Shown here: piece by piece, positions 23,348-64,000 of the stretch | Layout of the letters: every line of letters starts with the position of its first letter | Numbering within the stretch: the first letter of the stretch is position 1 | Assembly: GCA_973895155.1 (NCBI GenBank) | Contig: OZ316895.1 | Location: 1,362,435-1,426,434, forward strand | Reading direction: 5' to 3' | DNA from: Marsupella aquatica | Taxonomy: Eukaryota; Plantae; Marchantiophyta | DNA: 64,000 nucleotides | Translations under genes and position numbers: made by a program | The notes under the pieces: generated by a model | What the model saw: the letters and a program-made list of their open reading frames with translations, nothing else | What the model was told of the DNA's origin: nothing | The model's database searches: none

Positions 23348-23673
23348 CACTATACACACGCACTCAGCACCCTGTCATTTTATTATGCAAGTGAAAAATA
23401 CACTTCCTGTTAAGGATTTCACCCCCGACTGTACTTGCCAAAATACGTAACGTTCCAAAAAAACAAAAAAACAAAAAATATAGGTGTCTGAGTCATGTAC
23501 CTATTCTCAAGTGAATGAGACAAAATTCCTAAATGTTTGAGGGTGTCAACTCCTCCGCTGTCCTCACATGTACTGCCTCTGCACGTACATCCATGACCAT
23601 ATCAGAGTCCAATCATGTATAGTCATAGACACAGGTGCCAGGTGCGAGACCGGTGTGAGATGTCCTCATCTTA

Positions 23674-31921: not shown

Positions 31922-32296
31922 TGTTAGGTATTTACTTTTTTAGGTCTAGGGTTACAACATGTAACCCTAGTAAGTTAGGCTACCATAATCGGAGACGTGG
32001 TTAGGTTAACTAAGTTGCACACTATATCCTAAGCGGTGTTTGCTTGGATAAGTGGAACTAAGGCTCATTGTTACAAAGTCACTTGAGAGATAATGAGAGC
32101 TTACACTGTGGAGACTAGGTATGGCCGACGAGCTTAGAGTTCAATAAAACTTTCTTGTGTGTTTTCGTGCCTGGATGCAACCTCGAGGAGGTGAACCACA
32201 TATCTCTTGTATCGACCACTTGTGCATTGGATGTGTCATGTGCTTACCATTGTGAATGTCGTCTACTCAATGCTCTAATGTCGTCTATGCTCAACG
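31922..32296 (+). mobile_element. Solo LTR of the same Copia LTR family
   Basis: TGTTAGG...ATGCTCAACG (CA changed to CG); TSD CTCTA (31917-31921/32297-32301); collinear with 14081-14425; short duplication of the 3' end. Confidence 0.85.
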
Positions 32297-41900: not shown

Positions 41901-42329
41901 ATACTTTTAGATAGGATCTCTATCTCTCACACACACTTTCTCATCTCGTACAAATGTTTTTGTTTTGTTCTTGTGAAGACTCTGATAGAAGGTTGATCAT
42001 CTCAGTCCTTTCACTTTGATCAACAATTTCTTTGTCATTCATGCTACTAAGTCCTTAACTTGGCACTTGGTAGACAGTAATGTGTATATTGTACAGAGTG
42101 TTCCTTTGATACTTTCACTTGTTTTCATTCTCCCCTCTGATTTGGACTCCTGCTTTTTTTCAATTTTCTTTTTTTGGACTCCTGTCTCATGACTGAGCGC
42201 TTTTGTTCATTGGGAGTGTGATATATATTTGATAGTTCCTTGTAGTAAAAATTAGTCTAAAGTATAATTTCTTCTGTGGACTCTATGTATGATTCTTCAT
42301 TGCCTCAAGTATGTCATATCACCAGACAT

Positions 42330-42673
42330 TGTTGAGCATAGACGACATTCGTAACGGCAAGCCCATGAACCATCCAACGCACAAGAGTCGACACAGAGAG
42401 ATACGTGGTTCACCTCCACATGAGGCTACGTCCACGGCAACACATAAGAGTTTTACTGCACTCTAGGCCGACCGGCCATACCAAGCATCCACAACACAAG
42501 CTCTCCCTATCTCTCAACTAGCTCCGTAACAATGAGCCTAAGTTCCACCAGGGTCTGGAATCAGCCCTGGCTATATGCACACCAGCACTACCGCTAACAT
42601 TAGCTAAGTCCTAACCCGAGTTAGACTAACTATGGTTAGCTCATGAGTCACAAGACTAGAGCAATATCTAACA
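42330..42673 (-). repeat. 3' LTR of outer Copia (344 bp)
   Basis: TG..CA ends; near-identical to 55336-55437 + 60106-60317 apart from ~3 substitutions, a 29-bp indel and a 1-bp indel. Confidence 0.95.
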
Positions 42674-42880
42674 AACTCCCCCTTGAATCTTGTCTTGGGG
42701 ACTGAACTAAATGCTACCATATGGAATCCTCAGCGGGAAGTTCTAGACAATCACCAAACCAGGTCTCCCCCTAAAAACCACAAGGGTTAACTAAGGGTTA
42801 ACTAGAACTAAGCCGTAGCCTAACAGGAATGAGTAATCCATTTACAAATAGTCACACATTGTTAAATAACTCTACTTGCA

Positions 42881-44909
42881 CTACAACTGCAAAACCTGCA
42901 AAGTAGCACGGTGTCTTGAGAAACTCTCCAAAGGAATCACTTTGGTAAAGGCATCGGCAGGATTGAGCTTTCCATCAATCTTGACTAGCTCAAAAGTTTT
43001 ATCAGACACTGCTTGCCTGATAAAATGGTACCTGATATCAATGTGCTTCACCCTGCTATCCATCACCTGGTTAGCAGCCAAGTGAAGAGCACTTTGACTA
43101 TCACAGTTTAGAGTCATTTTGCCATGCTCTAAACCCATCTCCGCGATCAACTTATCCAACCAAATTGCTTCCTTTGCTGCTTCTGCTGCTGCAACATACT
43201 CTGCTTCTGTAGTAGACTAAGATATACACTTCTGCAAGGTAGATTTCCAACTGATACATCCTCCTCCAAGAGTGTATACAAACCCAGTTGTAGACCTCCT
43301 TGTATCCAGACAGCCTCCATAGTCAGAATCTACATAGCCAACCAACGTTCTATCTGATCTGTTATCAAATAGTAATCCATAGTCCTTTGTTCCCCTCACA
43401 TACCTGAGAATCCATTTCACAGCTTCCCAATGTACCTTCCCTGGATTTGACATGAATCTGCTAACCTTGCCCATCGCTAGGGCCAAGTCAGGCCTAGTAC
43501 AGGTCATCAAATACATCAGACTGCCTACTGCCTTCTCATAAGGAATCTTAGCCATCAGACCTTTCTCCACAGCATCCGTAGGAGAGAAAGCCGATGATAA
43601 CTTGAAATGTGAAGCTAAAGGAATACTCACTGGCTTATAGTTCTCCATGTTGAATCGTGCAAGTACTTTCCTCGCATACTGGCCTTGACTCAAGCACAAC
43701 TGTCCAGTCTCAGAGTTCCTAAAAATCTCCATCCCTAAGATCCTCTTGGCCTTACCAAGATCTTTCATCCTGAATTCAACACTCAATTTCGCCTTGAGAC
43801 TGTCAATCTCAGATTGATCTTTAGCCACAATCAGCATGTCATCCACATAGATCACAGAATGATGAAACCAAATACATCATTCTTGACTGATTTCGTATAC
43901 ACACAAGGATCATACACCATCCTTGTAAAACCTTGAGCAAACATGAAATCATCAAACCGCTTGTTCTACTGTCTGGGAGACTGCTTCAATCCATACAAGG
44001 ACTTGAGCACTCTGCAAACTAAGTTCTCTTGGCCCTTCTTCATAAAGCCTAACAGTGGCTGTCTCATGAAGATCAACTCTTCCAAGTTGCCATAGAGAAA
44101 AGCAGTAACAACATCCATTTGATCCATCACCAGACCAAAAAACACAACAAGCTGACACAAGATCCGAATTGTGGAATACTTAGCTACCGGTGAAAAGACC
44201 TCATTGTAATCCACTTCTTTCTCCTGAGTGAATCCCTTGGCAACAAGCCTTGCCTTGTAGATCTTGTCTCCACCCTCTGAAGGACTATCCTTCAACTTGT
44301 AAATCCACTTGCTGTCCACCACTTGCTGACCTCTTGGAAGCTCCACCAGCTCCCATGTCTTGTTGTCACTCAAAGATTGCAACTCCCTCTGCATTGCTGC
44401 ATTCCACTCATGCTTCTGCTCTGAAGCACAAGCCTCACTATACGATGAAGGCTCTCCTTCTTCCAAGATCAAAGCCATATCATCTTCATCAGGTGCAATG
44501 TCAATATCATCTAGCTTAGATGAGTCTGCCCATTGACCATACCTGGTAGGAGCTCTAGTAGAACGAATGGAAGTTCTTCTAGTAGATGACTCAGACTGAT
44601 CTGTTGCAGCTGTTGGTTGAATTTGAGGTACCCTAGCAACAATTTGCTCCTCTTGTTCCATCACAAGAACCAACTCCAAGCCCGGAGCTTCTCCATCTCT
44701 CCTGTCATGAACTGCATCATGACTAATCTCCCCCTCAACCCGGTCCGGGATGGGAGATTTCCCCTTATCAGTATGGGAGTCCTGAGAACTCTCCCCCTCC
44801 TTTGATGATCTGGATTCATTAAAGGACACATCTCTACTGACAATTAGTTTACAGGTTATTGGATCCCATAACCTATAACCCTTCACACCTTTTTGATAGC
44901 CAAGGAAAA
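42881..44909 (-). pseudogene. Outer Copia pol, C-terminal part (integrase end, RT, RNase H)
   Basis: IFLGYQKGVKGYRLWDP; YKARLVAKGFTQ; QMDVVTAFL; KSLYGLKQSPRQ*; IYVDDML; STTEAEY; KHIDIRYHFIR. Stops at 43966 and 43217, frameshift near 43856. Confidence 0.93.
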
Positions 44910-47900
44910 TATTAGGAATTGGCTCAATTGTTAGGAATTGACTCTAGTTCCCGACATAGTTAGCTTGGCCTTACTAGGGTTAGTTTTAACCCTAGATTAC
45001 ATTAGGATAAGATCCGCTTAGTTTAGGCCCACTCATCTTGGCCCCCTTGGGGGGTATAGGCTGGAGGGAGAGCACTCTCTCCCTCATTCTTCACATGTAC
45101 TCTCATTTGCTATGGAGCCTTCAGGAGTTTCTCCACTCGGGGTGTCTCGTCGGTGTAGCGTCTGATTGAGTGTCTCTCATATTTCCGCATTCCTATCTAG
45201 TCCGGAGCCGACGGTTTCTTACAAGTGGTATCAGAGCCTCGCGTTCGTGGTTCGGTGGCCTGGGCAGTGGTGAGAGCGTTTCATTGTATTGGATCGTGGT
45301 GGAAGATTGAATCGTCGTCGATGATTGCATGATTGTTTCACTGGTCGTTTCGCGTTGAAGGTTTCATGCTTGAATACGGTGACGGTTTCCCGATTGAAAC
45401 TTCAGCTTGGAGTGTCGGATGTGTCTCTGTTGTTTGAAGTACTGTCAAGAGGACAGTCTAGCGATCTCTTATGCGCGTCGGCGGGCACAACGTTTTGGTG
45501 AAGGTTTCAGTGCTTTTCATCATTGGTGTGCCGAGTAATCTTGTATATTGAGGTTGTTGTTTAGAGCTTTATGCTCTTGGTTATGGCTTATGTAAGGTTC
45601 GTCTCTCTCTCGTGTGGGGCCGAAGGAGTCTCTTTCTCTTCGTGAAAAGTCGTGAATTGTGGGGCCAATGTTGCATTATTTTTGCAAATTTTAGTTCATC
45701 CTTAAGTCGCCGTATCGCAACGTTATACGGCGTTGCGGACAGGCTTGAGTCCAGCCGGTGTATTATCTTCGGGCACGAGGCCATATGTTCCCCGTTGGCA
45801 TTGAGGGAGAGCCCGAGGTCTAAGAAGGTACATCTGTACCTGCAGGTACAGTACTTGAAAGTATTGTATTGAGTGGGGAGGGGGAGTTCGTAGCTCCCTC
45901 CTCTCAAGAGCTCTTGAAGAGGGCACGAGGCCCTGTGCAGGTACGACTGTACTTGCTGGTACAATTTTATTTTCTTTTAAGTGTGGGAAAGGGAAATTCG
46001 TATCTCCCTTCTCTCAGGAGCTTTAATGGGGCCCATTGCACTATGCTGAAAGAGCGAAGGGGAGGGGAGAGAGTCTCCTCCTTTGAGGAGACTTAATAAA
46101 CGGGGGCTCAAAGCCCTATGGAGGTGTGCAGGAGCCAGGAGGTGCATTAAGCTCCCTTTTTTCAGGAGCTAGGAGGGGAGTTAATGGTCCCTCTTTCCAG
46201 GAGCTTTGAAGGAGGGCTCGAAGCCCTATGATCAAGCCAGGAGGGCTCGAGTGAATTTTGAGGGGTACAAGGGGGGCATTAACGGCCCCTGTACCTGGTG
46301 CACAGCAGGACGGAGGGCTAGAGTGGAGGGTCGACGCGCGACCCTATGCGCGGGAGGGCAAGGCACGGAAAAGTTTTTTTAAAGAATTTTTTGAGGTCAG
46401 TAGGGACGAATGCTCGTCCCTAGTCTTCATTTTTTTTCTTTGTTCTTTTCTTTTTCTCTCCGCGATTACTCTTACTTCCCAGGTGGACAGGTGTTGGCTC
46501 CACATTTCTTCTGCTGTAAATTTCGACTGTACTTTGATTCCCTCCGAAAGATACTTTTCCAGAGAGCTGAATTTTGGCCGAAATTTCGAATTCGGCGGTT
46601 GTCGAGGCAGAATTTTTTCGCACTGCTTTGCAAGGGGATACTCAAGGGAGTTGAGCACCGGCCTGTGAAATCGATTTGCATTTAACTATTGCAAAAAAAT
46701 TTCGGGACCTAAGATACCCGACGGGGGTCAAAACGGCCATTTTGACCCCCCTCCGGTCCGGGTTGAATAAGTTTTTGCTGGAGAAGTTTTTTGCCAAATC
46801 ATTTTTAGATCTTGGTAGTGTACCTTGCAGGCTACGCGGCAGTGCATTCCATTTCCACTTTCACCAACTTTCATTTGTTGGTGACTTTTTGGGTGGAGGT
46901 ATTTTGGTTGTGTTTCCCGTGTGTTTGTGGCAGCATCAATGACTTCAAGAAAGCTTGCGGCGCCGAAGTTTGAGGTGGAGAAGTTTGACGGGAAGGTCAG
47001 CTTCAGCCTCTGGACTCGGAAGGTGACCAATGTGTTGATCCAGCAGGGTCTTGAGAAGACCCTCACTGGAGTGAAACCCTCGAATCTAACAGATGAGGAG
47101 TGGGAGGACATGTCGGTGCAGGCGTGTAGCACAATTGAGTTGTTCTTGGCAAACAACATTCTCAAGAACGTGTTGGGGATGGATCGGAATGCCAAGAAAA
47201 TCTGGGATATGCTTACTCAGCTATACCAGAGTACTTCGTTGACTACTCGCATTTATCACTTGGAGCGGCTATTCAGGTTGAAGTTGAAGGATGGTGGCAA
47301 CATGCGTGATCACCTCAGTCTCTTTGATGAGATTGTGCACGAGGTGGCCACGGCGGGAGACAAGTTGACCGATGAGTATCTTGCGATGCATTTGTTGATG
47401 TCGCTTCCTCAGAGCTATTCGACGTTGGTGACAGTCATCACACATGACAAGTCTACGTTGAAGCTGGATGAGGTAAAGGCTACCATTCTTGCAGAATGGG
47501 GCAAGCGACAACTTTCTGGCCGTGACAATGAGTCTGCTACCTTAGTGGTTAGAGGCAGATCGACGGAGCGTACTACGGATCAGTCTAGATCTAAATCACA
47601 TAGTAGATCTAAATCTAAGTCCCGTAGTAAGAAAGTGCAGTGTTGGCATTGCCATGAGAAGGGCCACACCAAGTGGAATTGTCCTTCTCTGTCGAAGCAG
47701 AAGCGTCCTGCTTCCAATGGTGCGTCCTCATCGTCGGCTGGTATTGTGATTGCTGATAATGAGGATGCTGCTGAAGTGCTATGTATTGGTGCTGTGAATT
47801 CTGTGTATGACAATAAATGGATGTTGGATTCGGGTTCCTCTTATCACGTGTGTCCAACGCAATCGTATTTCTCCACTTACCAACCTTGTACCGATACTGT

Positions 47901-50900
47901 GGAAATCGGAAATGGAGTCCGATGTGCGATTGTTGGCATGGGGACTATCAAATTCCGGATGTTTGATGGTGTTGTGCGAGCACTGACGGGAGTCAGACAC
48001 ATACTAGACATCTCTAAGAATTTGATTTCTCTTGGTGCTTTGGAAGCTGGTGGATCTCATTTCACTGCACGTGATGGTGCGCTCTTTGTCATCAAAGATG
48101 ATGTATCTTTGATTAAGGCGCTACGGCAGAATAATTTGTACATCTTGGAAGGAGATGTCATTGCTCCTAGAGTGGAGCATGTGGATTCTATGGTGGAACG
48201 TTCGGATGCAGCGGCAACATCTGCTGTAGAGTCATCTACGGCTGCTTCAATTGAAGCACCCTCGACATCTGGTCGCACACAAGCCATAGATTTGTGGCAT
48301 GCACGGTTGGGGCACTTGAGTGGTAAAGGATTGGCAGCCTTGGCAAACAGAGATTTGTTGCAAGGCGCTCAATCTGATAAACTCTCTTTTTGTGAAGATT
48401 GCATCTTCGGCAAGCAGAGGAGAGTGAGTTTCAGTTCTAGTTCATACCATTCTCATGAAATTCTTGAGTATGTACATTCGGATATTTGGGGTCCAGTGCC
48501 GGAGCCGTCGTTGGGTGGAGCCAGATATTTTGTGACGTTTGTAGATGATTACTCTCGAATGTGTTGGTTGTACTACATGAAGGAGAAGTCTCAAGTCTTT
48601 GAGATTTTCAAGGAGTGGAAAGCCATGGTAGAGCTACAAACTGGGAAGGAGTTGAAGTGTGTTCGGTTCGATAACGGTGGCGAGTATAAGTCCAATGAGT
48701 TTGATCAATTTGGTCGGGACCTTGGCCTCAAGCGTCATTACACTGTACCGGAGACCCCGCAGCAGAATGGAGTTGCAGAACGGTTGAATCGGACATTACT
48801 AGAGAAATCACACAACATGCTATGTAAGTCCAAGTTGCCCAACAACTTTTGGGCTGAAGCTGTCAACCAAGCTGCATACGTCTACAATCTGTCACCGCAT
48901 AGTAGTAAGTTGATGCAGACTCCATATGAGTTGTGGTATAAGAGACCTGCTGATTACTCTAGACTCCGAGTTTTTGGTTGTGCTGCCTATGTTCACATTG
49001 AGCAGACACACAGGTCTAAGTTGGATCCCAAGTCTAAGAAATGTATTTTTCTAGGCTTTAGTCCTGGGCAGAAGGGCTATAAATTGTGGGATCCTGTCGA
49101 TTGCAAGGCAGTTGTGAGCAAAAATGTTGTTTTTGACGAAGAATGGTTGTCAAGACCCCGGGATATTCAAGAGGAACAGGTGGAGGAACCCACTACGATG
49201 GAGCTTGGTGGCGATGAGGAAGCTGCTGGTCCCTCTGGAAGAGGTGCAATTCCTCAACCAAGGCGCTCCACCAGGGCCAATTTTGGCCAACCCCCTGATA
49301 GATTTGGTTTTGCAGATCCTCGTGTTCACGTTGTTGAGCATGACGATGATCCCGGTGTTATTTTGCTTACTGAAGATGGAGACCCCTCTAGCTATGAAGA
49401 AGCTATGGCCTCTCCAGAGAAGGATAAGTGGATGGAGGCGATGTTGAAGGAGATGAATTCTTTGAAGAAGAATTCAACTTGGCGCTTAACTGACATGCCT
49501 CGCGAGAAAACACTGGTTCCGTGTAGATGGTTGTACAAGAAGAAGCAGGATGGCACTTACAAGGCTCGCCTTGTGGCCAAAGGGTACACCCAGAAGGAGG
49601 GCTTGGACTACACGGAAATTTTCTCACCAGTTGTCAAACTCACTACTATCCGTGTTTTACTTGCGATTGTGGCATTCTATGATCTTGAGTTAGATCAGAT
49701 GGATGTAATTACTGCTTTCCTGCATGGATTGCTTGATGTGGAGATTTATATGACTCAGCCTCCAGGTTTTATTGATGAAAAGACCAGACACTTGGTGTGT
49801 AAGCTCTTGCGCTCGTTATACGGATTGAAGCAGAGTCCCAGACAGTGGAATAAGCGTTTTGATTCCTTCATGTTATCTCAGGGGTTCACACGAAGTGAAC
49901 ATGATTGTTGTATTTACATGAAGGAGGTGGAGAATTACTCACGCTTTGGTTACATTGTGCTGGCATTGTACGTGGATGACATGTTGATCCTGGCTGAGAA
50001 TAAGTCTGATGTTGCCCATCTGAAAGCAATGCTGAGTAAGGAGTTTTCAATGAAGGACTTGGGTCAGGCCAAGAAGATACTAGGGATGGAGATTCATCGT
50101 GACAGGGAGCAAAGGCAATTATGGTTGTCTCAGAGGCAGTATTTGGAGAAGGTACTTGCCAAGTATGGAATGGAGAATGCAAAACCAGTTGGTACTCCAT
50201 TGGCCTCCCACTTTAAACTCTCAAAGAATGATTGCCCTTCTAGTGAGAGTGATAGACTGGCGATGAAACATATTCCCTATGATAGTGTTGTGGGTAGTTT
50301 GATGTATGCAATGACATGCACTAGACCTTACATTGCCCACGCTGTTAGCATTTTGAGCAGATTTATGGCAAATCCTGGTAAGCTTCACTGGGAAGCAGTG
50401 AAGTGGGTTTTGCGGTATTTGAAAGGTACCTTAGATTGTGGGATCTTATTTGACGGTAAAGCAGACTCTACATTAGAGTTGGAAGGTTTTGTAGATTCAG
50501 ATTATGCTGGTAACTTGGATAACAGAAAGTCTACTACAGGCTATGTGTTTATGCTGGGTGGAGGTTGTATCAGCTGAAAGTCGGCAACTCAATCTTGTGT
50601 TGCGTTGTCTACTACTGAGGCTGAGTACATGGCTGCATGTGAGGCAACCAAGGAGCTGATCTGGCTACGGAGATTGGTGAGTGATCTGGGTCTTTCACCT
50701 GAAAGACCGGTGCTGCTGTGCGACAGTCAAAGTGCTTTGCATCTGGCTAAGAACCCCGTGTTCCATGCCAGGACAAAGCACATTGACATTCGTTATCACT
50801 TCATCCGTGAGGTGATTGAGACAAAGCAGATGTTTCTGGAGAAGGTGGCTTCAGAGGAGAATGCGGCAGACATGCTTACCAAAGTTTTACCTACCAATAG

Positions 50901-51317
50901 CTTTAGTCATTGTGTGGATATTATTAATGTTAGGGCCAAACCAGTGACTATGTAAATATGTTACTTAGTTACATATTGTATATCACCTGACTCATTGTGT
51001 GAACTTGAGTCAAGGTGGAGATTGTTAGGAATTGACTCTAGTTCCCGACATAGTTAGCTTGGCCTTACTAGGGTTAGTTTTAACCCTAGATTACATTAGG
51101 ATAAGATCCGCTTAGTTTAGGCCCACTCATCTTGGCCCCCTTGGGGGGTATAGGCTGGAGGGAGAGCACTCTCTCCCTCATTCTTCACATGTACTCTCAT
51201 TTGCTATGGAGCCTTCAGGAGTTTCTCCACTCGGTGTGTCTCGTCGGTGTAGCGTCTGATTGAGTGTCTCTCATGTTTCCGCATTGCTGTCTAGTCCGGA
51301 GCCGACGGTTTCTTACA
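44910..51317 (+). mobile_element. Nested Ty1/Copia retrotransposon (inner), inserted antisense into the outer integrase
   Basis: 295-bp LTRs 44929-45223 and 51023-51317 (~4 substitutions); TSD GAAAA (44905-44909/51318-51322) splits host KKCIF|LGY; PBS TGGTATCAGAGC 45226-45237; PPT AAGGTGGAG before 51023. Confidence 0.96.
46939..50955 (+). pseudogene. Inner Copia gag-pol polyprotein with one premature stop
   Basis: KFEVEKFDG gag start; CWHCHEKGHTKWNC knuckle; WMLDSGSSYH protease; HARLGH/CEDC and VHSDIWGP..DNGGEY..NGVAER integrase; LYVDDML RT; TGA at 50575-50577 (ISW to IS*), then in-frame RNase H STTEAEY...KHIDIRYHF to 50955. Confidence 0.95.
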
Positions 51318-53594
51318 GAAAATGCACTTCTTTGACTTGGACTCCAGCTTGGATCGAAGCTGGGAAGGTGTAAGCACATAAGCATCACATCCAAAAATCC
51401 TCAGATGTGAGTAATCTGCTAAATGCCCGTACCTCATTTCAAATGGCGTCTTGAATCCAATCGAACTGGATGGAGAAAAATTTACCAAATAAGCTGTAGT
51501 GTTGACAGCTTCAGCCCAAAACTCATGTGGTAAGCATGATTGACTCAACATACTCCTCGAGCGGTCCAATAGTGTTCGGTTGAGTCTCTCAGAAACACCA
51601 TTCTGCTGAGGAGTATAACTTGTTGTGAGATGGCGGGTAATCCCCTGCTCCTTACAATACGTTCTAAATTTCCCGGAACTGTATTCACCGCCGTTATCCG
51701 ATCGAAGATATCTCACCTTATTACCAGTCTGATTCTCAACTTGGGCTTTCCACTCCTTAAAAGTGGCAAAAACATCAGACTTATTGTGTAGAAAGTATAT
51801 CCACACATACCTTGAGTAATCGTCTATGAACGTGACATAGTATAACCGTCCAGAATGTGAGGGAGTAGGGGCTGGACCCCACACATCACTATGTACATAC
51901 TCAAGTACCTCCTTGCTGGTGTGAGTTCCAACTCCGAAGGGTTTCCTGTGCTGCTTCCCTAGCACACAGTGCTCACAAAATTCCAACTTACAAGATTGCA
52001 AATTAGAAAGTAATCCTTTCTTCTGAAGAATAACCAAACCTTTTTCACTCATGTGGCCCAAACGGAAGTGCCACAGCCGGGCCGTCTCCTCATGAGATAA
52101 GGTTACATTGGCTTCATCACAAACTACATTGCCCTCCAAAACGTATAGATTGTTATGTCTCTTTCCCTTCAATACAACTTTAGTACCAGTTGAAACCTGA
52201 AGGATACCATTAGCAGAGCTCCACTGATGGCCATTTGCTTCTAAAACTCCAAGTGAAATGAGATTTTTCATCATGTTGGGAATATGTCTCACATTCCTCA
52301 ACGTTCTCATAACACCATCAAACATCTGAAATCTTACAGATCCAAGTCCAACAACTTGACATGGGATTCCATTTCCCATCAACCCTGACCCGTTGGAAAC
52401 CGTGTAAGAACTAAAACAATCTCTCCTAGAGCAAATGTGAAAAGTACATGCACTATCTAGAATCCAGTCATCACTACCTGGATTTGACACTGCGTTGAGA
52501 GCATAACCTTGACATCACAATATGTCATCATCATCGAGTAAATCTACCTCATGCGAGCTCGATGCCGCGTTAGCAGAGGCAGTAGGGACCTTTACTCGAC
52601 AATCCCTTTTCATGTGGCCAGGCTTGCCACAATTCCAACATGCAAGAGGCTTCCATGCAAGAGGCTTCCTCTCTTGCGATTTCCCTCTGGATTTAGATCT
52701 CCCCTGTGATGTAGATCTAAACCTATTCTGTCCATTCGTGCGCTGCGCTGCTCTTCCCCTGTTCACATTGAGTGCAGTGCCAGAAGAAGATGTTGTCTGT
52801 GATTGACCCAACTTCTTCTTAGCATCATCAGACAATAAAGAGCTCACCACCTCATTATACGAAATGGACTTCAGATCTCTGTATAAGAGCACCTGTTTCA
52901 AGCCCTGATATGACGGCGGTAAGGAGCTTAGCAGAAGCAAGGCCTTTTCCTCATCTTCAACTCCTTTTCCCAGGTTTGACAAATCCACCGCTAGACTGTC
53001 AAATTCATCCAGGTGATCCTGCATCTTGCTCCCTTCCTTGAGCTTGAGGCTCATCAAGAGAGACTTCTTGTACAACCGGTCTGATGCATCTTCCCGGTAG
53101 TACTTCTCTCTAAGAACCTTGAACAGTGACGCGCAATCCGCATAATCATCCAGTTGCTTGATGATGTGCGGCTTGAGATATAGCATCACTGCATTGACAG
53201 CAATCACCTGCTCCTGTCTCCACTGTCTCACAGAAATCTCCTCCTCTCCATCATACTGCTATCGCGATGAAAGCAGATGAGCTAAGCCCATGGCCCGTAG
53301 AACACCCTTCACTTGCTTCTCCCATAGCAAATAATCAGTACGACCATCGTACTTCTCCACCTCAAACTTCACTCCTCCAAATCTAGCCATCTCCCTCTTC
53401 TTCCCTACTACCGACAGCTCTGGTAGTAACACAGCTTCCTCCACTGCATGCCGCACCAGTGATCGTACCGGTGTCACTAGTTCTTCCTCAAACGGTAGCA
53501 GCTCCTCCTCAGACTCTCCATCTGACCGTCGCGATCCTGAAGCTCCATCGACGCCAATTCTTCCAGTATCCCCCGAGTCACTCATATGAAACAA
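51318..53594 (-). pseudogene. Outer Copia gag, protease and integrase (N-terminal part)
   Basis: MARFGGVKFEVEKYDG; CWNCGKPGHMKRDC; WILDSACTFH; WHFRLGH..CEHC; VHSDVWGP..SDNGGEY..NGVSER. In-frame stops at 53259 and 52515. Confidence 0.93.
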
Positions 53595-55335
53595 TCACGA
53601 AAAAACGTCTTTTTTCAAAACTTCTCATAAAACTCAAAACTCAACACCGCCGTGTAACCCACGAAGTTGGGAGTCCAATACTGAAAGTCGAAATCAAAAT
53701 TGAAATTCGACGAAAAAGTTATTCAAATTTCGGTCGGGGTGGGTAAAACCTTGGGAAACTCCCCCGTTTTGACCACCTCGGAGAATAACCAAAATACCAA
53801 GTACAACCCGTCGTCGGAATCGCGATGTGATTGGTGCGCCGTGTTGCTAACTCCAGTGGCAATGTCCTCACCAAAAAAGAACCAAAAAAGTTACCGTTCG
53901 GCGGACGGAATCTTTGTCGGATGGCCAAAAAACAGCTCTCTATTTTTTGGGAATATTCCCGCACAGTCCGACAGATCTCACAGGGGGTCGTTCCCCCTGT
54001 CGGAGCGGTTAAAATGGAGGGCCACCGGTCCCCGGACAGCCAATAGAAGAGCCGACAAGAAAAAGACAAAAAAAATGGCCCTAAAGGGGTGCAAAGCGCC
54101 CTAAATTGAAAAAATACGAGTATAAAAAGGCGCATCCGCGTATAGGCGACGCGAGGCGGGCCAGGAAGTATACACGTATTGGGCCGAGCATTTACAAGGC
54201 GTATGGTACGGGGTACGGGGAGTACCCGGGCGGCTGCATACGCAGCCGCGGTCATATAGTCGGCGCGAGTGAGGCGGGGCGAAAAATAGCCGGCAGCTTT
54301 TGATGGTGGCAGGGCCGCACACGCTGTGGGCTCAGGCAATGAGCAAGGCCGGAGCACGAAAAAGGAGGGAGGCGAGCAAGGGCACGGCCGGGGAGCAGCA
54401 GCCAGTCGGGGGGAGGGTGGGCACTGGCAGCGCGAGCGCGCACACAGCGCCGGCCGGCGCTGGGCAGCTCGCTCTGCGCCTGAAATAACGAGGGTGCGGG
54501 GGAGGGGGGGCGCGCATACACGGTACACAGTGCGGGATGGGGAGGAGGTGGAGAACGTGTGTTTATACACACATTCGTGTGTGTATACACACACAAGGGG
54601 TTAAACCCCTTTAAAACCAAAAATGACCCCCCCCCCAACGGAAAAAGGCAAAAACTCACCTTTGCCGCCGCTGTTTCCAACGAGTAAAATGAACGCTGCC
54701 GACGGTAAAAGTGGTCGAATTTCACCGGCACAGTTTGCAAGCTCAGCAAAGACTACACTTTTCGTCGCGTCGCCTTCACTTCGCATCAAGTGCCAATCCC
54801 GGACTCAAAACGACCGCCTCGCTGCGATCAAACCGTTGAGCCGTAGCACTTTGCGCTTCTTCCACCGAGTCGGACGTCACGAAGAGAAACCTGGTTCAGA
54901 TGAGAACAAGCTCCATAGCTTATGAAAAAACCTGAACGCCTCCTTCACTCGTCACGACGCACTTGGTAACAACTCGGCAGCAACTCAACTACCAAAATGA
55001 CCAGCTCGCATCAACCTTCAACTTGAGCTATAATGTGCGATCCCTCCCGCACCACACAGCTCACTCCGTTGAAAAACGCGATCTCTGGTCTCTCCCCCGA
55101 AAACCTGTCGAACACGAATAAAACCTGAACGACGCAAACTTCAATTCCTCTGCACCACGGATACCGATCAGCGAGTTCTAACCACCGTTAGAAAGCCCTC
55201 TCACTAACCTATCCGCTCAGCCACACACATTCGAGTTTCATGCGATGAAACTCCGAATGTACCATCGACAATGAACGCTGGAAAAACCTGTCACGAAAAA
55301 ACCTCGTCACCTCCCAAGCATGCTTTGATACCACT

Positions 55336-55437
55336 TGTTGAGCATAGACGACATTCGTAACGGCAAGCCCATGAACCATCCAACGCACAAGAGTCGACAC
55401 AGAGAGATACGTGGTTCACCTCCACATGAGGCTACGT
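55336..55437 (-). repeat. 5' LTR of outer Copia, PBS-proximal part
   Basis: Matches 42330-42431; adjacent to the PBS; interrupted after TACGT. Confidence 0.93.
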
Positions 55438-58400
55438 TGTGGTGCGTCCCATGGCTCCCTAAACCCAAGAAACCCCCCAGCTCAAGCCGATTCCCGCAGG
55501 TTTCGCGCTTGGCGAGGCCGTTTCCGCGGCTTAGCGGCATGGGACGCTGCTAACCTTCTACTACTACTATTAACATTTTACACACATATACTGGACAGAT
55601 CCTTCATCGGGTCATGAGATACGTAGCCGGCCTAATCTAGGCCTTCCCCTGTCTTCCCCTCCGTCTTGTTAGGTATGTTTGGATTCCGCCGCCGGAATGA
55701 TCCCCAATAGGCTTGGTTAAGCCGCTAAGACCTCTCTCAGCTCGACACATCCAACTCTCACTCCCCTGCTTACTTTCCTTCCTTTTGGTTGATGTGGGCA
55801 CTCTTCACACAAGTTAATGCGACACACAAATAGCAAAATGACTCATTCTGATTGAGTCATACCATGCACTTGCCATACAAACAGTACATCTCATACACAA
55901 GTTCTGCGAACTAAGCCGTGAGGCCAACTCTATTCAGCTCTTAGGCATGAGGAAACATGAATATACACAAGGGTCACTGTATGACTAACCGAGAGCTTCT
56001 CGTACTACTTGATCCCAGCCCGGCTGGTGCAAACTAAAAACTTGCTAAAGAAGAGGCCCTTAGCTCCCCGCTGCCCAGGTACTTATCCTGGTAGTGGATC
56101 CGCCATTCTTTGCATCGTAAGCCTAATCTACCTAACAGTAATCTACTTGCCCGAATCTACCTATGTACAGCAAGGCAGGAGCACAAGTGTTGCTCCTACC
56201 AGTGGGACCGCAATCCCACTAAGCTAAGTATCAGGGCCGCTCCTGGTTCTGATCCTAATCCTAAACGTGGAGATCCGCGCCCGCCCTGCTCACTCACGCC
56301 TCCTCCCTCCACGTCCGCCCTCCCTAAAAGGAACGGCACCTTTGCACCGTCACGACACCGGTGGTGGATCCTTAATGGACGCCCCCAACGCTTCCTCCTC
56401 AGCCACTGCCGTAGGCTCATTCCCTGATAGATTACCTGCCCTTGACTGAGTCAATTCTCCCTCGGCCTGACTGGGTCCACCATCGGCGTTGGCATCGGCT
56501 CGGGAATCGGTTACGGCCTCAGCCTCGGCTACGGTCTCCCCGGCCTGCTCAAGAGGCGGATCTGGAATACCGGCCTCATTACTGAGTAGTTCGGCTTGGG
56601 CCGCACCACCCCCACCTGTGATGATAGCGGGATCTATTGCCGTATTCATGCCGGAGGATGGTGCTGGTTCTACCTCTTTGGTCACCACGGCTTGTGGAGT
56701 CGGATTACTCCTTGACCCTGAAGGTTTCCGCTTTTTCTTCTTTTCTGGTTCGGCAGCTGGTCCCTTCCCCTTCCCACTTACTTCCGGCACTGGTGCAGTT
56801 GGCGCGGCTTTTTCTTCGGCCAGTACCACTCCTGGTAACTTGGTTGCCCCAATTGGAGTTGGGCCTAATGAAGACAAGCACTTAAATACTGCGGCTTGTT
56901 TCTTCAGCCGCTCCGTTTGGTTGTCGGCCCGCCGCTGGAGGTTCTCCATCTTCCTCGTGATTTCCTCCAACTCCTCCTGGGTCTCATCCAGGTCCTTGCG
57001 TGCCTCCTCTAGTTCCTTTTGGGCTTCCTCCCGTTCTTGTTTCAAGGTAGTCCTCTCCTCCTGGGTTGCTCTTAGCTCCTTGTCGAGCTCTGCAATGATG
57101 ACAGACTCCATCTGGTTCATCTTGGCGTAAGTCTGTTCGAGCATCTCGTCCTTCTCCCTTAGGTCTGCCTTGAAGCTGGCCGTCAGGGACGCAAGCTCCT
57201 GCTGCAGCGCCATAATCCCTTGATAGGATTTCCCTAACTCGGCCTCCTTCTGCCCAAGGGCTCCGCGGATTTTCTCGAGCTCCCCCTTCAACGCCCATTC
57301 CTTTCTTTGGGTCTCTGCCATGGCCCGGCTGTTGGCTGTTATGTGGGCCTCCTCTGTATTCTTCAGCTCTTGCTTCCACTTCTCCCTCTCTTTGATCGTG
57401 TCGGCCAACTCTCCCTGCGTCTGAGTCAGTTTATCCTTGATATTCTGATTATCAGCCTGCGCGGTGTCCAACTGCCCCTGCATGATGTTCAGCTCATGTC
57501 GTTTAATCCGCAGTTCATCTTGGGCTTTCTTGGCCGCCCTTAGATCTTCAATCTCGGCTTCCATCCTCCTAAGCTGCCGAATGACCTCGTCCTTCTTGCT
57601 TCTCTCTAAAGCCACCGCTTCTTCTAATTGGTGCTTCTCCAACTGCTCCCTATGGAAAAAGGGTCCTACCTCCAACTCCTCTCCAAAGATGCCGAGCGCA
57701 AGTTCCCCACACATCTCACCATACTCCATGGCTCTATTCTTAGCGTAGGTGGAGTAAGTAGAAGTGATCGACATCGCCCATCGCGGCCTCTGCTCCCAAG
57801 CCGTCTTGCGGATCTCTTCAATCGTGGCTAGAGGTTTGCTTCCTTTTTTGGCTAGCCGCCTGATGTCCTCCGGCCAATCTCCTCCTGGTAAATCCTTTTC
57901 CCTAGCCAGGGCTGCCTCCTCTTCCTGCTTGATTCGCTCCTGAAATTCCTGCACCGTCTGTTTTATGCCGTCGAAGCTCGGGGGAGCAACATCTGGTGGG
58001 GGAGACTCAGGGCTACTCTGCTGGTTGGGGTCCCCTCGCACTACCCTTGGAAGTGTGGGGACAAACCGGCCACAGGTCCTTACTCCTGGGACGTGATGGT
58101 CCGACCCATAGCAGGAATTATCATGGCTGCAGTCCTCCACTGCCTCCTCTACTTCTTGGCCGTCCGGCTTCTCCCTCTCCTCTTCCTCGGTAGGAGCTTT
58201 AGGCAATTCTGCCTCAGATTCGGAGCTTGAGATTCCCACATACATTCGAACACCTGGCTTGGATTCAGGCCTGATTCTCTCCTTGTCTCCAGCAAAGGGG
58301 TTTTCTCTTGTGAGCCGGTGTAGGCCTACCTCTGTAGTAGTGTCCTGCATTGTTGCCGTTGCCGTTGTTGTTGCCGATGCCGATTTCTTTTCTTTCTCCA

Positions 58401-60100
58401 GTAGTTTCAGCAGACTCTGCATGCCTGGTTGCTACATCGGCAAGTCCTCCTTCCTGGGCCTAAACACGTGCTCGATCGTAGGGCTAACAGGTGGTTGAGG
58501 CTTCTCAGCCAACGGCCTCGGCGTTGGAGCTTCCTCGGGTGCCCTTACCTGCAGGGGAAGTACCGGGGCAAAAGTTTGACCTCTGGCATACCGGCACAAC
58601 AGCGGCATGTGATAGCCAAGCCGCGACACGCTCCCCATGCCAATTACCTGCTGCTCCTCCTTTAAGATCTTCTTCAATTGGTTGAGGAGGTACCCGTTGT
58701 AGTCCCGGCTTGGGTCTGGCCTTTCTGCCAGATAGACCTGTGCCTTGCCGATCTCTGCCCTCGGCAAGTTACAATGCATGGTCACCCGCAAGAAGTCGAT
58801 CATCTCTCCTATGTGCGGGTTGGTGCAGGTGTTCCGGAAGAAGCCATTCTTCATTGATGGCCCGGGGAACGACCGGAACTCCTTGTCAGGCAAGGTCTTC
58901 CTGGTATCAACTTTGGTCTTATTGCCTATCGGCAAGCCAAACACTTCGGCAATTACCTTGGGAGTAAGATAGAAATCCTTCCCATATATCCTCGTGCAAT
59001 TGGTCTCGGGTTCCCATGACCCCACGAATTCTAATAGGTCTGACTCCGGTACCTCCGGCTTCAGCCATGGTAATCTTACAAAGGCCTCTAAGCCGGATCC
59101 GGCCATGAAGCCTTGGTACTTCTTGGTCTGCATGGCCGTGAAGCATGCATCCTCCTCCCGTGCAAAATGTAGTTGCACCTCCACCGGTAGGGTTGCCGCC
59201 CAGCCCTTCCAGGTGTCATCCCTGGTTGGAATGGCCTTGATGGGATCGACCTCCTCCTCTTCGGCTTCTCCCTGCCTCCTGCTCTGCTGCTCGGTTGGCT
59301 TCTTTGGTGCCGCCGACCTCGTTCTTTTTGCCGGGGTGGCTTCATCATTGACGGCTCCTTTCCTCTTCATCTCTGCTGCCGTGGAGGTTTCTCCTAGCAC
59401 CGTTGCCTGGGTCCACCTTTCTGTGCTACCCTTTAATTCCCAGTGTATGTCGTTGCAGTTCTTGATGGCCTCTCGGATGCCGACAACGCTGTCTTTGCAA
59501 AACAGAAGATCGTCGAGTTGATTGGAAGTAGGCGTCCACAGGAACTCGTCCTTGATGAGTTCGCCTCCTAAGAAAGCCGTCTTCTGCAGCTCCCACAATC
59601 GAGCGAGCTCCTACCGTTCTCGAGCTACCCTTTCTGATTCCTCGTCCTCGTAAGTCTTGATGTACTCAGTTGCCCGTTCGAACAGGCATCCCCAGAAATG
59701 TGCCGCTTGATTGACGTTGTTCATACCCTCCTTAGGTCGATCGTCGGTATCTACTCTCTCCGCGAGTGCTTGCCTAAGCAGCTGACAGTAGTTGGCCTCC
59801 CGTAGTCGTCTGCCTAGTTCGTGCTCGCAAATGAGCCACCATCTCCTGCAAGCGCTCCTTACCCCTCTCCTCTGCCAGTCCTTCTTCCCGTTGATCCTTC
59901 CTAGCCGCCGACGCTTAACGCGCCCTAACCCTAATCAAGTTTTCACCCTCAGCGTCCTTACCTCCGGCCTCGGCCCGGGTTCCATGGTTGCCCCTAATGG
60001 TTTATATTTTCCTTATTTTGTCCCTATACTAAGGTGTTCCTAGGGTGCCTTCCTGCTTTACCCACTTAACTGGCCGAGTGATTCCTGTCTAGGCATCACA
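55438..60100 (-). mobile_element. 4,663-bp TG..CA element with 5-bp TSD and no gag/pol; putative giant solo LTR carrying a long ORF (copy 1)
   Basis: TSD TACGT (55433-55437/60101-60105); ends TGTGGTGC / GCATCACA (imperfect 8-bp inverted repeat); removing it restores the Copia LTR; no internal direct-repeat pair, PBS, RT or integrase seen. Confidence 0.85.
56350..59985 (-). pseudogene. Single 1,211-aa ORF in copy 1 (plant mobile/transposon-protein-like domain plus long coiled coil), broken by three nonsense codons
   Basis: ATG at 59985 follows TATA-like AAATATAAA; track ORFs 58432-59598 and 56350-58422 share one frame; stops at 59935, 59611 and 58432 read CGA, CAG and CAG in copy 2. Confidence 0.8.
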
Positions 60101-60105
60101 TACGT

Positions 60106-60317
60106 CCACGGGAACACATAAGAGCTTTACTGCACTCTAGGCCGACCGGCCATACCAAGCATCCACAGCACAAGCTCTCCCTATCTCTCAACTAGCTCCG
60201 TAACATCAGCCCTGGCATATGCACACCAGCACTACCGCTAACATTAGCTAAGTCCTAACCCGAGTTAGACTAACTATGGTTAGCTCATGAGTCACAAGAC
60301 TAGAGCAATATCTAACA
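60106..60317 (-). repeat. 5' LTR of outer Copia, distal part
   Basis: Continues the 42330 LTR sequence after the TSD; ends TCTAACA followed by GACAT. Confidence 0.93.
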
Positions 60318-60549
60318 GACATATCACACCTGGGAATACATCCTTTCTCTGAAACAGCCATGTGCCTGAAACTGTCAACTAGCCACTGAATAATTGGTGC
60401 AATGTTTGATCTTCCTCATGCATAAATAGAATTGAACAAATATCTGTTTGAATGTCCATGATTTTACATGGGAATACTATTACTAGTACTCCAAACTGAT
60501 TTATACAAATAAGGGTGATTGGCCAATTTCTAGATTGTGGATGACAAGG

Positions 60550-63500
60550 TGTGATGCCTAGACAGGAATCACTCGGCCGGTTAAGTGGGTAAAGTAGGAA
60601 GGCACCCTAGGAACACCTTAGTATAGGGACAAAACAAGGAAAATATAAACAATTAAGGGCAACCATGGAACCCGGGCCGAGGCCGGAGGTAAGGCTGAGG
60701 GTGAAAACCCGATTAGGGTTTAGGGCGCGTTAAGCATCGGCGGCTAGGAAGGATCAACGGGAAGAAGGACCGGCGGAGGAGAGGGGTAAGAAGCGCTTGC
60801 AGGAGATGGTGGCTCATTTGCGAGCACGAACTAGGCAGACGACTATGGGAGGCCAACTACTGTCAGCTGCTTAGGGCAAGCACTCGGGGAGAGAGTAGAT
60901 ACCGACGATCGACCTAAGGAGGGTATGAGCAATGTCAATCAAGCGGCACATTTCTGGGGATGCCTGTTCGAACGGGCAACTGAGTACATCAAGACTTACG
61001 AGGACGAGGAGTCAGAAAGGGCAGCTCGAGAACGGCAGGAGCTCGCTCGATTGTGGGAGCTGCAGAAGACGGATTTCTTAGGAGGCGAACTCATCAAGGA
61101 CGAGTTCCTGTGGACGCCTACTTCCAATCAACTCGACGATCTTCTGTTTTGCAAAGACAGCATCGTCGGCATCCGAGAGGCCATCAAGAACTGCAACGAC
61201 ATACACTGGGAATTAAAGGGTAGCACGGAAAGGTGGACCCAGGCAACGGTGCTAGGAGAAACCTCCACGGCAGCAGAGATGAAGAGGAAGGGAGCCGTCA
61301 ACGATGAAGCCACCCCGGCAAAAAGAACGAGGTCGGCGGCACCAAAGAAGCCAGCCGAGCAGCAGAACAGGAGGCAGGGAGAAGCCGAAGAGGAGGAGGT
61401 CGATCCCATCAAGGCCATTCCAACCAGGGATGACACCTGGAAGGGCTGGGCGGCAACCCTACCGGTGGAGGTGCAACTACATTTTGCACGGGAGGAGGAT
61501 GCATGCTTGACGGCCATGCAGACCAAGAAGTACCAAGGCTTCATGGCCGGATCTGGCTTGGAGGCCTTTGTAAGATTACCATGGCTGAAGCCGGAGGTAC
61601 CGGAGTCAGACCTATTAGAATTCGTGGGGTCATGGGAACCCGAGACCAATTGCACGAGGATATATGGGAAGGATTTCTATCTTACTCCCAAGGTAATTGC
61701 CGAAGTGTTTGGCTTGCCGATAGGCAATAAGACCAAAGTTGATACCAGGAAGACCTTGCCTGACAAGGAGTTCCGGTCGTTCCCCGGGCCATCAACGAAG
61801 AATGGCTTCTTCCGGAACACCTGCACCAACCCGCACATAGGAGAGATGATCGACTTCTTGCGGGTGACCATGCATTGTAACTTGCCGAGGGCAGAGATCG
61901 GCAAGGCACAGGTCTATCTGGCAGAAAGGCCAGACCCAAGCCGGGACTACAACGGGTACCTCCTCAACCAATTGAAGAAGATCTTAAAAGGAGGAGCAGC
62001 AGGTAATCGGCATGGGGAGCGTGTCGCGGCTGGGCTATCACATGCCGCTGTTGTGCCGGTATGCCAGAGGTCAGACTTTTGCCCCGGTACTTCCCCTGCA
62101 GGTAAGGGCACCCGAGGAAGCTCCAACGCCGAGGCCGTTGGCTGAGAAGCCTCAACCACCTGTTAGTCCTACGATCGAGCACGTGTTTAGGCCCAGGAAG
62201 GAGGACTTGCCGATGCAGCAACCAGGCATGCAGAGTCTGCTGAAACTACTGGAGAAAGAAAAGAAATCGGCATCGGCAACAACAACGGCAACGGCAACAA
62301 TGCAGGACACTACTACAGAGGTAGGCCTACACCGGCTCACAAGAGAAAACCCCTTTGCTGGAGACAAGGAGAGAATCAGGCCGGAATCCAAGCCAGGTGT
62401 TCGAATGTACGTGGGAACCTCAAGCTCCGAATCTGAGGCAGAATTGCCTGAAGCTCCTACCGACGAAGAGGAGAGGGAGAAGCCGGACGTCCAAGAAGTA
62501 GAGGAGGCAGTGGAGGACTGCAGCCATGATAATTCCGGCTATGGGTCGGACCATCACGTTCCAGGAGTAAGGACCTGTGGCCGGTTTGTCCCCACACTTC
62601 CAAGGGTAGTGCGAGGGGACCCCAACCAGCAGAGTAGCCCTGAGTCTCCCCCACCAGATGTTGCTCCCCCGAGCTTCGACGGCATAAAACAGACGGTGCA
62701 GGAATTTCAGGAGCGAATCAAGCAGGAGGAGGAGGCCGCCCTGGCTAAGGAAAAGGATTTACCAGGAGGAGATTGGCCGGAGGACATCAGGCGGCTAGCC
62801 AAAAAAGGAAGCAAACCTCTAGCCACGATTGAAGAGATCCGCAGGACGGCTTGGGAGCAGAGGCCGCGATGGGCGATGCCGATCACTTCTACTTACTCCA
62901 CCTACGCTAAGAATAGAGCCATGGAGTATGGTGAGATGTGTGGGGAACTTGCGCTCGGCATCTTTGGAGAGGAGTTGGAGGTAGGACCCTTTTTCCATAG
63001 GGAGCAGTTGGAGAAGCACCAATTAGAAGAAGCGGTGGCTTTAGAGAGAAGCAAGAAGGACGAGGTCATTCGGCGGCTTAGGAGGATGGAAGCCGAGATT
63101 GAAGATCTAAGGGCGGCCAAGAAAGCCCAAGATGAACTGCGGATTAAACGACATGAGCTGAACATCATGCAGGGGCAGTTGGACACCGCGCAGGCTGATA
63201 ATCAGAATATCAAGGATAAACTGACTCAGACGCAGGAAGAGTTGGCCGACACGATCAAAGAGAGGGAGAAGTGGAAGCAAGAGCTGAAGAATACAAAGGA
63301 GGCCCACATAACAGCCAACAGCCGGGCCATGGCGGAGACCCAAAGAAAGGAATGGGCGTTGAAAGGGGAGCTCGAGAAAATCCGTGGAGCCCTTGAGCAG
63401 AAGGAGGTCGAGTTAGGGAAATCCTATCAAGGGATTATGGCGCTGCAGCAGGAGCTTGCGTCCCTGACGGCCAGCTTCAAGGCCGACCTAAGGGAGAAGG

Positions 63501-64000
63501 ACGAGATGCTCGAACAGACTTACGCCAAGATGAACCAGATGGAGTCTGTCATCATTGCAGAGCTCGACAAGGAGCTAAAAGCAACCCAGGAGGAGAGGAC
63601 TACCTTGAAACAAGAACGGGAGGAAGCCCAAAAGGAACTAGAGGAGGCACGCAAGGACCTGGATGAGACCCAGGAGGAGTTGGAGGAAATCACGAGAAAG
63701 ATGGAGAACCTCCAGCGGCGGGCCGACAACCAAACGGAGCGGCTAAAGAAACAAGCCGCAGTATTTAGGTGCTTGTCTTCATCAGGCCCAACTCCAATTG
63801 GGGCAACCAAGTTACCAGGAGTGGTACTGGCCGAAGAAAAAGCCGCGCCAACTGCACCAGTGCCGGAGGTAAGTGGGAAGGGGAAGGGACCAGCTGCCGA
63901 ACCAGAAAAGAAGAAAAAGCGGAAACCTTCAGGGTCAAGGAGTAATCCGACTCCACAAGCCGTGGTGACCAAAGAGGTAGAACCAGCACCATCCTCCAAC
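60550..64000 (+). mobile_element. Second, inverted copy of the ORF-bearing element (copy 2), truncated by the window end
   Basis: Starts TGTGATGCCTAGACAGGAATC, the reverse complement of the copy 1 end at 60100; collinear to ~56650 with scattered substitutions; left flank CAAGG is the predicted TSD. Confidence 0.9.
60665..64000 (+). pseudogene. Copy 2 of the long ORF; +1 frameshifts at ~60720, ~60875 and ~61988; appears open from ~61990 to the window end
   Basis: ATG at 60665 corresponds to 59985; track ORF 60925-62145 leaves the true frame at ATCTTAAAAGG (copy 1 ATCTTAAAGG); MQSLLKLLEK resumes at 62228. Confidence 0.8.

Follow-up and report, generated by a model that had tools for sequence, protein, structure and literature searches.

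The window analysed here is a stretch of 64,000 nucleotides from the liverwort Marsupella aquatica (assembly GCA_973895155.1, contig OZ316895.1, positions 1,362,435 to 1,426,434 of the forward strand). At positions 55438 to 60100 of this window, a unit of 4,663 bp splits the long terminal repeat (LTR) of a Copia retrotransposon, and most of its length is taken up by one long open reading frame (ORF) on the minus strand. The unit is most likely a solo LTR, the lone end-repeat of a plant retrotransposon. Its boundaries, with the exact 5 bp target site duplication (TSD), and a second copy nearby are given below. The sense strand of the unit is taken to run from its polypurine tract (PPT) end to its primer binding site (PBS) end.

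55438..60100, minus strand: solo LTR (copy 1), 4,663 bp, TG..CA; its sense strand is the minus strand of the window
55433..55437, unstranded: left TSD, TACGT, exact 5 bp, single copy in the partner LTR
60101..60105, unstranded: right TSD, TACGT, exact 5 bp
55438..55445, unstranded: terminal inverted repeat at the LTR 3' (CA) end, 7/8 match
60093..60100, unstranded: terminal inverted repeat at the LTR 5' (TG) end, 7/8 match
55335..55437, minus strand: one half of the host Copia LTR, matching the partner LTR
60101..60322, minus strand: other half of the host Copia LTR, matching the partner LTR
60550..64000, plus strand: second LTR copy (copy 2), inverted and running off the window, 98% identical over 3,448 bp, with three frameshifts

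The sequence TACGT is present once in the partner LTR of the host Copia element (42329-42673), which serves as the unsplit reference. The two halves of the split LTR are approximately 99% identical to this partner, except for a 29 bp deletion. The TG..CA ends, the imperfect 8 bp inverted repeats and the TACGT duplication within a Copia LTR, all reported in a preliminary description of the sequence, are confirmed. No direct repeats of the LTR type are present within 55438-60100, and Pfam gives no match to gag, reverse transcriptase (RT) or integrase (INT) in the unit's two long stop-free pieces or its N-terminal piece, in agreement with the earlier statement that paired LTRs and these genes are missing from the unit. 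No Gypsy gag-pol was found in 38 further stop-free segments of the 64 kb window. Copy 1 is a single unit with one 5 bp TSD, and since its ends adjoin this duplication rather than a PBS or PPT, it is a solo LTR.

Copy 2 is preceded by CAAGG and not by a purine tract, and it is therefore either a 5' LTR or another solo LTR. It begins approximately 227 bp beyond the host Copia LTR (with 60323-60549 in between) and 449 bp from copy 1, in inverted orientation. Two separate insertions this close together may be due to chance in a repeat-rich region or to a local target preference.

LTR flanks and family copies in public sequencing runs

Of 17 public runs that were listed, seven, from five coded organisms, contain 24-73% of the sampled words of the unit. 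Contigs were aligned from four of the 17 runs (X1, X2, X5 and X6), representing four organisms, with X1 read at approximately 57%; any of them may come from the same source as the window. Runs X8-X17, with small word shares, were excluded, and no RNA run was among those listed, which does not bear on expression. A total of 16,967 contigs from X1, 31,853 from X2, 882 from X5 and 258 from X6 aligned to the unit, which is fully covered in each of these runs (30/30 bins). Contig depth is not copy number; from the contig numbers and the full bin coverage, the LTR family is large and diverse, at least in X1 and X2.

The ends of the unit are sharply defined in these runs. To the left of 55434 three of the four have a depth of 0 and a single bin of the remaining run reaches 48.8, as against approximately 1e5-1e6 inside the unit. 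Loose contig ends at 55438 number 12 in X1, 42 in X2, four in X5 and three in X6, and their flanks are mixed (agreement 0.36-0.55). This sharp stop in coverage, coupled with the mixed flanks, indicates that many separate insertions share exactly this end base. Contigs that join 55432 to 60101 and so skip the unit, representing the empty site, are present in three of the four runs (11, 18 and 2 contigs).

The presence of a PBS after the CA end and a PPT before the TG end had been set beforehand as the test of LTR identity, and both were seen in contigs from these runs, oriented like the ORF. At the CA end, the 20 letters adjoining 55438 in a contig of X1 read, on the LTR sense strand, CA, then four T, then TGGCGCTA. 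This contig (joint 55564 to 55438) apparently comes from a rearranged copy in which the last approximately 140 bp of the LTR and the first PBS bases are duplicated. Against the last 12 letters of this flank, the mixed consensus of the loose ends has, by hand count, 7 matches in X1, 8 in X2, 7 in X5 and 8 in X6. When X2, X5 and X6 are pooled, 23 of 36 letters match (P 9e-7 to 4e-4 for match rates of 0.25 to 0.35). The PBS-like motif may match tRNA-Asn, for which two look-ups gave no confirmation. It begins with TGGCGC, as in Athila, and is unlike the Met-type site of the host Copia element. A PBS is defined by a TGG 0-5 bp after the LTR (Neumann et al. 2019, PMC6317226), and the Athila junction is described as an AT-rich spacer of 3-6 bp followed by TGGCGC (ATHILAfinder preprint).

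At the TG end, five X1 contigs extend beyond 60100 with a common flank (agreement 0.82) in which a purine tract, 9/10 purines, ends three bases before the TG. Among the loose ends listed, which leave 1,626 others aside, the tract was found in X1 and in none of the other three runs; in one X6 contig the match also ends at 60100 and the contig extends 106 letters further. Elsewhere in the window the purine motif has 7 matches where 5.7 are expected, and thus no meaningful match. In some copies of the family, then, the TG is preceded by a purine tract and the CA is followed by a PBS-like motif, both on the same strand as the ORF, and together with the TG..CA ends and inverted repeats this identifies the unit as an LTR that carries its ORF in the sense orientation.

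There is no sign of a common short-LTR form of the family. Depth is of one order over the ORF and the ends (157,000-897,000 in X1 and 200,000-1,258,000 in X2, for bins inside the unit) and does not rise at the ends. In the 15 of 150 joints listed, each internal deletion is represented by one contig with a depth below 450, and no well-supported joint skips the ORF. No contig among those listed spans the whole unit. The case of short LTRs with an internal ORF, which the preliminary description had named among those that would overturn its inference, is thus unsupported. A search of the JGI metagenomes gave no matches to the LTR end.

The long frame and its predicted product

The coding features of the unit are as follows.

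56350..59985, minus strand: long frame, 1,211 codons, 78% of the unit, interrupted in copy 1 by stops at codons 17, 125 and 518
59937-59935, minus strand: stop at codon 17 of the copy 1 frame
59613-59611, minus strand: stop at codon 125 of the copy 1 frame
58434-58432, minus strand: stop at codon 518 of the copy 1 frame
56350..59724, minus strand: likely coding sequence of 1,124 codons (72% of the unit) with Met88 as its start, placed by the start of homology and the Met of relative P0009; a pseudogene in copy 1
60001..60006, minus strand: TATAAA, LTR positions 95-100, candidate promoter, the sole TATAAA on the sense strand of the unit
55438..56349, minus strand: non-coding LTR tail, 912 bp, with 11/12 of the listed indel rows
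59245..59724, minus strand: N-terminal region with relatives of its own, codons approximately 88-247 (P0006, P0009, P0015, P0024)
58570..59208, minus strand: conserved domain, codons approximately 260-472, defined by relatives, without a Pfam match and with a weak Transposase_32/ATHILA ORF-1 lead
56896..57648, minus strand: long predicted coiled coil, codons approximately 780-1030, 38-55% E/K/R/Q, no proline in 781-1020
56725..56742, minus strand: KKKKRK, a predicted nuclear-localisation-like run, by sequence motif

The preliminary description of a single reading frame over 78% of the unit holds for its extent of 1,211 codons, with the qualification that copy 1 has three stops. By composition approximately 52 stops would be expected in this frame (P ~3e-19), and the other five frames have 24-63. 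In copy 2 all three positions have sense codons, and the frame is instead interrupted by three 1 bp insertions that cause its three frameshifts. At codons 17 and 125, a base other than that of the stop accounts for 85-100% of the depth in all four runs; the codon 518 stop is not among the 40 of 637 variant rows listed. The listed indels (12 of 20 rows, at approximately seven distinct loci) fall in the 912 bp tail in 11 cases, and the one in the frame is of 3 bp.

Between copy 1 and copy 2 there are 25 synonymous and 35 non-synonymous differences, a ratio of non-synonymous to synonymous change (pN/pS) of 0.57 (P 0.024). Of the 36 listed variant sites within the frame, 15 are synonymous, 19 are non-synonymous and 2 involve stops; 18 of the 36 are at third positions. 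This is modest selection overlaid by decay, and the frame is a real gene of the family. Transitions make up 54 of the 65 differences between the two copies, and 32 of the 52 differences scored are in a CG or CHG context, in line with the decay of methylated repeats after insertion.

The likely start codon is Met88 at 59724. Homology to the relatives begins at codon 92, with none aligning earlier, and relative P0009 begins with a Met at the position that corresponds to Met88, which is also where the ORF of copy 2 starts. The first ATG of the frame (59985) had been described as a start 115 bp from the end of the unit behind a TATA-like box. The box is indeed present, as TATAAA at 60006-60001, and begins 21 nt ahead of this ATG. 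The usual spacing between a TATA box and the start of transcription is 25-35 nt, so that the first ATG is unlikely to be transcribed from this box, and it was rejected as the likely start for this reason and for the lack of homology before codon 92. It might still be used, given that the indel at 59953 is of 3 bp and that most copies have a sense base at codon 17.

Relatives of the protein were identified with a word-free search of 1.84 billion representative proteins at E<=0.001. A total of 23 proteins matched, the best with an E of 6e-49 at 41% identity; one of these, P0020, is a spurious repeat protein, leaving 22 unnamed relatives. Ten relatives were looked up. Four of them carry a name, in each case that of an unnamed protein from the liverwort Calypogeia fissa, whose relatives include CAM6082161.1 and CAM6101870.1. 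Another five are found only in Logan, and one is a cluster with hypothetical JGI members; these are 22-29% identical to the window protein. Searches for homologous proteins found none for the whole frame among 7,987 scored and none for a 392-residue piece among 3,750, a profile search gave P0022 as its single match among 7,994 scored, and none of 477 pattern matches to the protein in JGI metagenomes was confirmed.

Following the N-terminal region and the conserved domain, a proline- and acid-rich linker leads to the predicted coiled coil, for which Pfam coiled-coil matches are sub-threshold only. Relatives P0031 and P0011 likewise have a coiled-coil-like C-terminal part. No transmembrane stretch is present, the maximum hydropathy over 19 residues being 0.89. 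There were no matches to PF20167, PF03078 or PF10536 for the window pieces, for the 23 relatives (E<=0.1) or for 15 sequences (E<=10). In the Atlas, relative P0011 has as neighbours a cluster of Transposase_32 (PF20167) at 0.84 and one of ATHILA (PF03078) at 0.83. The AlphaFold model is poor (pLDDT 54.7, pTM 0.25). A helix-hairpin-helix in the best-predicted part of this low-confidence model presumably resembles those of the PF20167, PF03078 and PF10536 families. Foldseek with this poor model gave no matches at E<=0.001 and a sequence search of the PDB gave none, and both results are uninformative on the fold. By analogy with other extra ORFs that combine a domain with a coiled coil, the protein of approximately 1,120 residues would probably act as a nuclear accessory factor of the element, related to chromatin or silencing or to import of the integration complex.

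Probable placement of the gene within the element

We consider it likely that the unit is the solo LTR of a high-copy retrotransposon family, probably of the Athila/Tat type of Ty3/Gypsy, with a 4.66 kb LTR that carries an accessory gene in the sense orientation, here broken, for a product predicted to be nuclear. A full Gypsy element would have integrated into the Copia LTR, giving the 5 bp TSD, and recombination between its LTRs would then have deleted the interior and left the solo LTR. The gene probably lies in an enlarged U3, like sag in mouse mammary tumour virus (MMTV), and each round of reverse transcription would carry it from the 3' end of the genomic RNA into the two LTRs. The TATA box (LTR position 95) would serve as its promoter, and polyadenylation would take place in the 912 bp tail, the likely site of R, the poly(A) site and U5. 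The tail has a T-richer stretch at LTR positions 4001-4250 and no AATAAA. The simplest origin of the arrangement would be a sense extra ORF between pol and the 3' LTR that was pulled into U3 as plus-strand priming shifted to an upstream purine tract. One short sequence in the tail bears on this origin.

56061..56069, minus strand: 9-mer, 623 bp from the CA end, that repeats the nine bases immediately preceding TG in the contigs with the purine tract

It is possible that this 9-mer is the relic PPT of an older, shorter LTR, a weak and post hoc suggestion from the sequence.

Membership of the Athila/Tat (OTA) lineage is probable. As in these elements, there is a 5 bp TSD, an LTR within the range of up to approximately 5 kb known for non-chromovirus LTRs (PMC6317226), and a PBS that begins with TGGCGC after an AT-rich spacer. 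The extra ORF also has the same composition of a conserved domain, a coiled coil and a nuclear-localisation-like run; extra ORFs with a plant mobile domain (PMD) and a coiled coil are known in Tat (Ustyantsev 2015, PMC4408406). PBS types of OTA elements are non-Met (Asp, Asn, Arg, Lys), whereas those of Tekay are mostly tRNA-Met (PMC6317226). The PBS of the unit differs from that of Brassicaceae Athila in diverging after six bases, and the extra ORFs of Athila/Tat are reported from the internal region, before or after gag-pol, while the one described here has the purine tract on one side and the PBS on the other and so is part of the LTR. The sunflower Athila has a sense additional ORF (aORF) of 487 residues with PF20167 and a nuclear localisation signal (NLS) (PMC11728184). 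The likeness of the window protein to Transposase_32, ATHILA ORF-1 and PMD proteins consists of the Atlas lead of a relative's domain and the helix-hairpin-helix of the model; its own domain differs in having no Pfam match, and the protein is much longer, at approximately 1,120 residues against 487 for the sunflower aORF. Unlike an Env-like sense aORF, the gene encodes no transmembrane segment and follows the purine tract instead of lying between pol and the 3' LTR.

Retrosat2, with LTRs of 3.2 kb, has an ORF0 upstream of gag-pol that is treated separately from the LTR (PMC3485330). Retrosat2, RIRE3 and RIRE8, together with the 5' aORF of sunflower Tekay, resemble the present case in having LTRs of more than 3 kb and an extra ORF that is coiled and predicted to be nuclear (PMC3485330, PMC11728184). 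They differ from it in the placement of ORF0 outside the LTR and in the mostly tRNA-Met PBS of Tekay. In the survey of Neumann et al. (PMC6317226) extra ORFs are classed as 5' or 3' of gag-pol, and the passages found do not speak of a position within the LTR; the review of Vicient and Casacuberta (2020, PMC7264820) places additional ORFs in the internal region. For TatII, forward extra ORFs are reported at the 5' side in 23% and at the 3' side in 26%, and Tekay also has them on both sides (PMC6317226). It is possible that these near-equal rates hide a precedent, since they would fit ORFs borne by the LTR. No plant retrotransposon with an ORF inside its LTR was confirmed as a precedent in a literature search with little subscription coverage, nor is there one in the accessible portions of PMC3601003, PMC2533021 and PMC7251063.

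Retroviruses provide known cases of protein-coding genes in the sense orientation within an LTR, such as sag of MMTV and nef of human immunodeficiency virus (HIV), where both the LTRs and the genes are much shorter. The likeness is one of layout only, a sense gene in a terminal repeat that would be duplicated at each replication. These are animal retroviruses and no relation in sequence is implied. As solo LTRs and large retrotransposon derivatives (LARDs) are generally understood, the unit agrees with them in its TG..CA ends, its single TSD and its lack of an interior, and differs in carrying a selected gene of a size that is not reported for them in the literature covered.

Several points weigh against the explanation favoured here. 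The U3 placement is itself deduced, and a promoter at position 95 from which the genomic RNA begins, leaving the gene in R/U5, would also agree with these data. The purine tract rests on one of four runs, the clean PBS is a single rearranged contig and the other runs provide a statistical signal in a mixed consensus. The flanks were viewed up to 30 letters beyond each end and no gag-pol was seen beside the LTR. The gene is pseudogenised in both window copies; the inference of the preliminary description, a giant LTR that encodes a protein, is supported with this correction and that of the likely start at Met88. The selection signal on the frame is modest. No Pfam family matches the conserved domain or 14 relatives at E<=10, and the Atlas lead is below the tool's 0.9 level and comes through a relative that is 27% identical. 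The hint of a relic PPT is a nine-base match that was found after the fact.

A true LTR with its gene in a giant R/U5 is a possible but unlikely alternative to the U3 placement. The TATA box at position 95 would then start the genomic RNA, with the ORF as first cistron and gag-pol expressed through splicing or re-initiation. That this is the sole TATAAA on the sense strand, the tail having no second canonical TATA and no AATAAA, is in its favour, and in Ogre-type elements gag-pol is spliced and the sense extra ORFs are found at the 5' end (PMC4408406). It would require a minus-strand strong-stop DNA of approximately 4.5 kb, going by the general scheme of LTR replication, and the T-richer region that may contain the poly(A) site lies downstream of the gene. 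We find equally doubtful a non-autonomous, LARD-like family in which gene-bearing LTRs surround a non-coding interior and gag-pol acts in trans. Non-autonomous elements need a PBS and a PPT as well, and the absence of a visible gag-pol next to the LTR fits; nothing speaks directly against it, although extra ORFs of this build come from elements defined by their gag-pol (PMC4408406, PMC6317226, PMC7264820).

Two further explanations are very improbable. The preliminary description had raised a non-autonomous cassette mobilised by an integrase. A unit that is not an LTR, either a self-contained cassette or a DNA transposon with TG..CA ends, moving as one piece by means of a mobility protein of its own, would account for the 7/8 bp inverted repeat, the clean TSD, the one large ORF and the name of the weak Atlas lead, Transposase_32. 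PF20167 is, however, described as related to Athila ORF-1 (PMC11728184), and no transposase Pfam match was found in the unit, whereas the CACTA transposase in the same window matches with an E of 3e-47. The PBS-like and purine flanks are at the correct ends and in the one orientation of the ORF, which makes a cassette that is not an LTR unlikely. The other explanation, in which LTRs of the family are ordinarily short and the ORF is internal, the unit being a deletion derivative or an LTR with a one-off insertion of the ORF, agrees with the normally internal position of extra ORFs (PMC6317226, PMC7264820), and the 9-mer at 56069-56061 may be the trace of a former LTR start. It is hardly credible in view of the depth of one order and the low depth of the internal deletions among the joints listed, the lack of direct repeats at the ends of the unit, and a purine tract that adjoins the far, ORF-proximal end.

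Other features of the window and the meaning of a probable gene-bearing LTR

The host of the insertion belongs to a nested Copia cluster and other features are found further to the left, as follows.

42329-60322: nested Copia cluster, with a minus-strand element whose LTRs are at 42329-42673 and 55335-60322
44927-45223 and 51021-51317: inner Copia LTR pair, 99% identical, around a plus-strand gag-pol frame of 1,212 codons (46939-50577)
14209-14429, 12710-12749 and 32028-32160: diverged pieces of the host Copia LTR family
approximately 16400-23350, minus strand: remains of a CACTA-type transposon, with Transposase_21 at 21842-23347 (E 3e-47)
24387-25031, 25834-26511 and 23677-24207: BRCT, PHD-like and weak F-box-like frames near the CACTA remains, which may be its cargo
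6167-9827, minus strand: host gene whose exons include sigma-70 regions 2 and 3, probably for a plastid sigma factor encoded in the nucleus
767-1180: dual-specificity phosphatase exon
38372-38977: DUF212

A fourth profile match in the window (6541, E 0.002) was rejected, being a composition match inside an exon of the sigma-factor gene.

The LTR family is abundant and looks recently active. Extra ORFs are common in plant retrotransposons, and the reviews place them internally. Retrotransposon extra ORFs and the LTR genes of retroviruses are known; what would be new here is an unusually large accessory gene that has been relocated into the LTR. A gene that fills most of an LTR is present in two copies per element and persists through the formation of solo LTRs, and its copying requires strong-stop or plus-strand synthesis over an unusual length. 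Surveys that sort extra ORFs into 5' and 3' bins could hide such cases. In genome annotation, solo LTRs of this kind would be called orphan host genes, and the relatives in Calypogeia fissa are annotated as unnamed proteins. It is conceivable, if rather speculative, that the gene has its own promoter and poly(A) signal wholly within the LTR, and that young solo LTRs go on supplying a nuclear anti-silencing or chromatin protein in trans once recombination in the host has eliminated the rest of the element. If this is true, every solo LTR would be a complete gene cassette, and the usual route by which retrotransposons are removed would become one of gene amplification.

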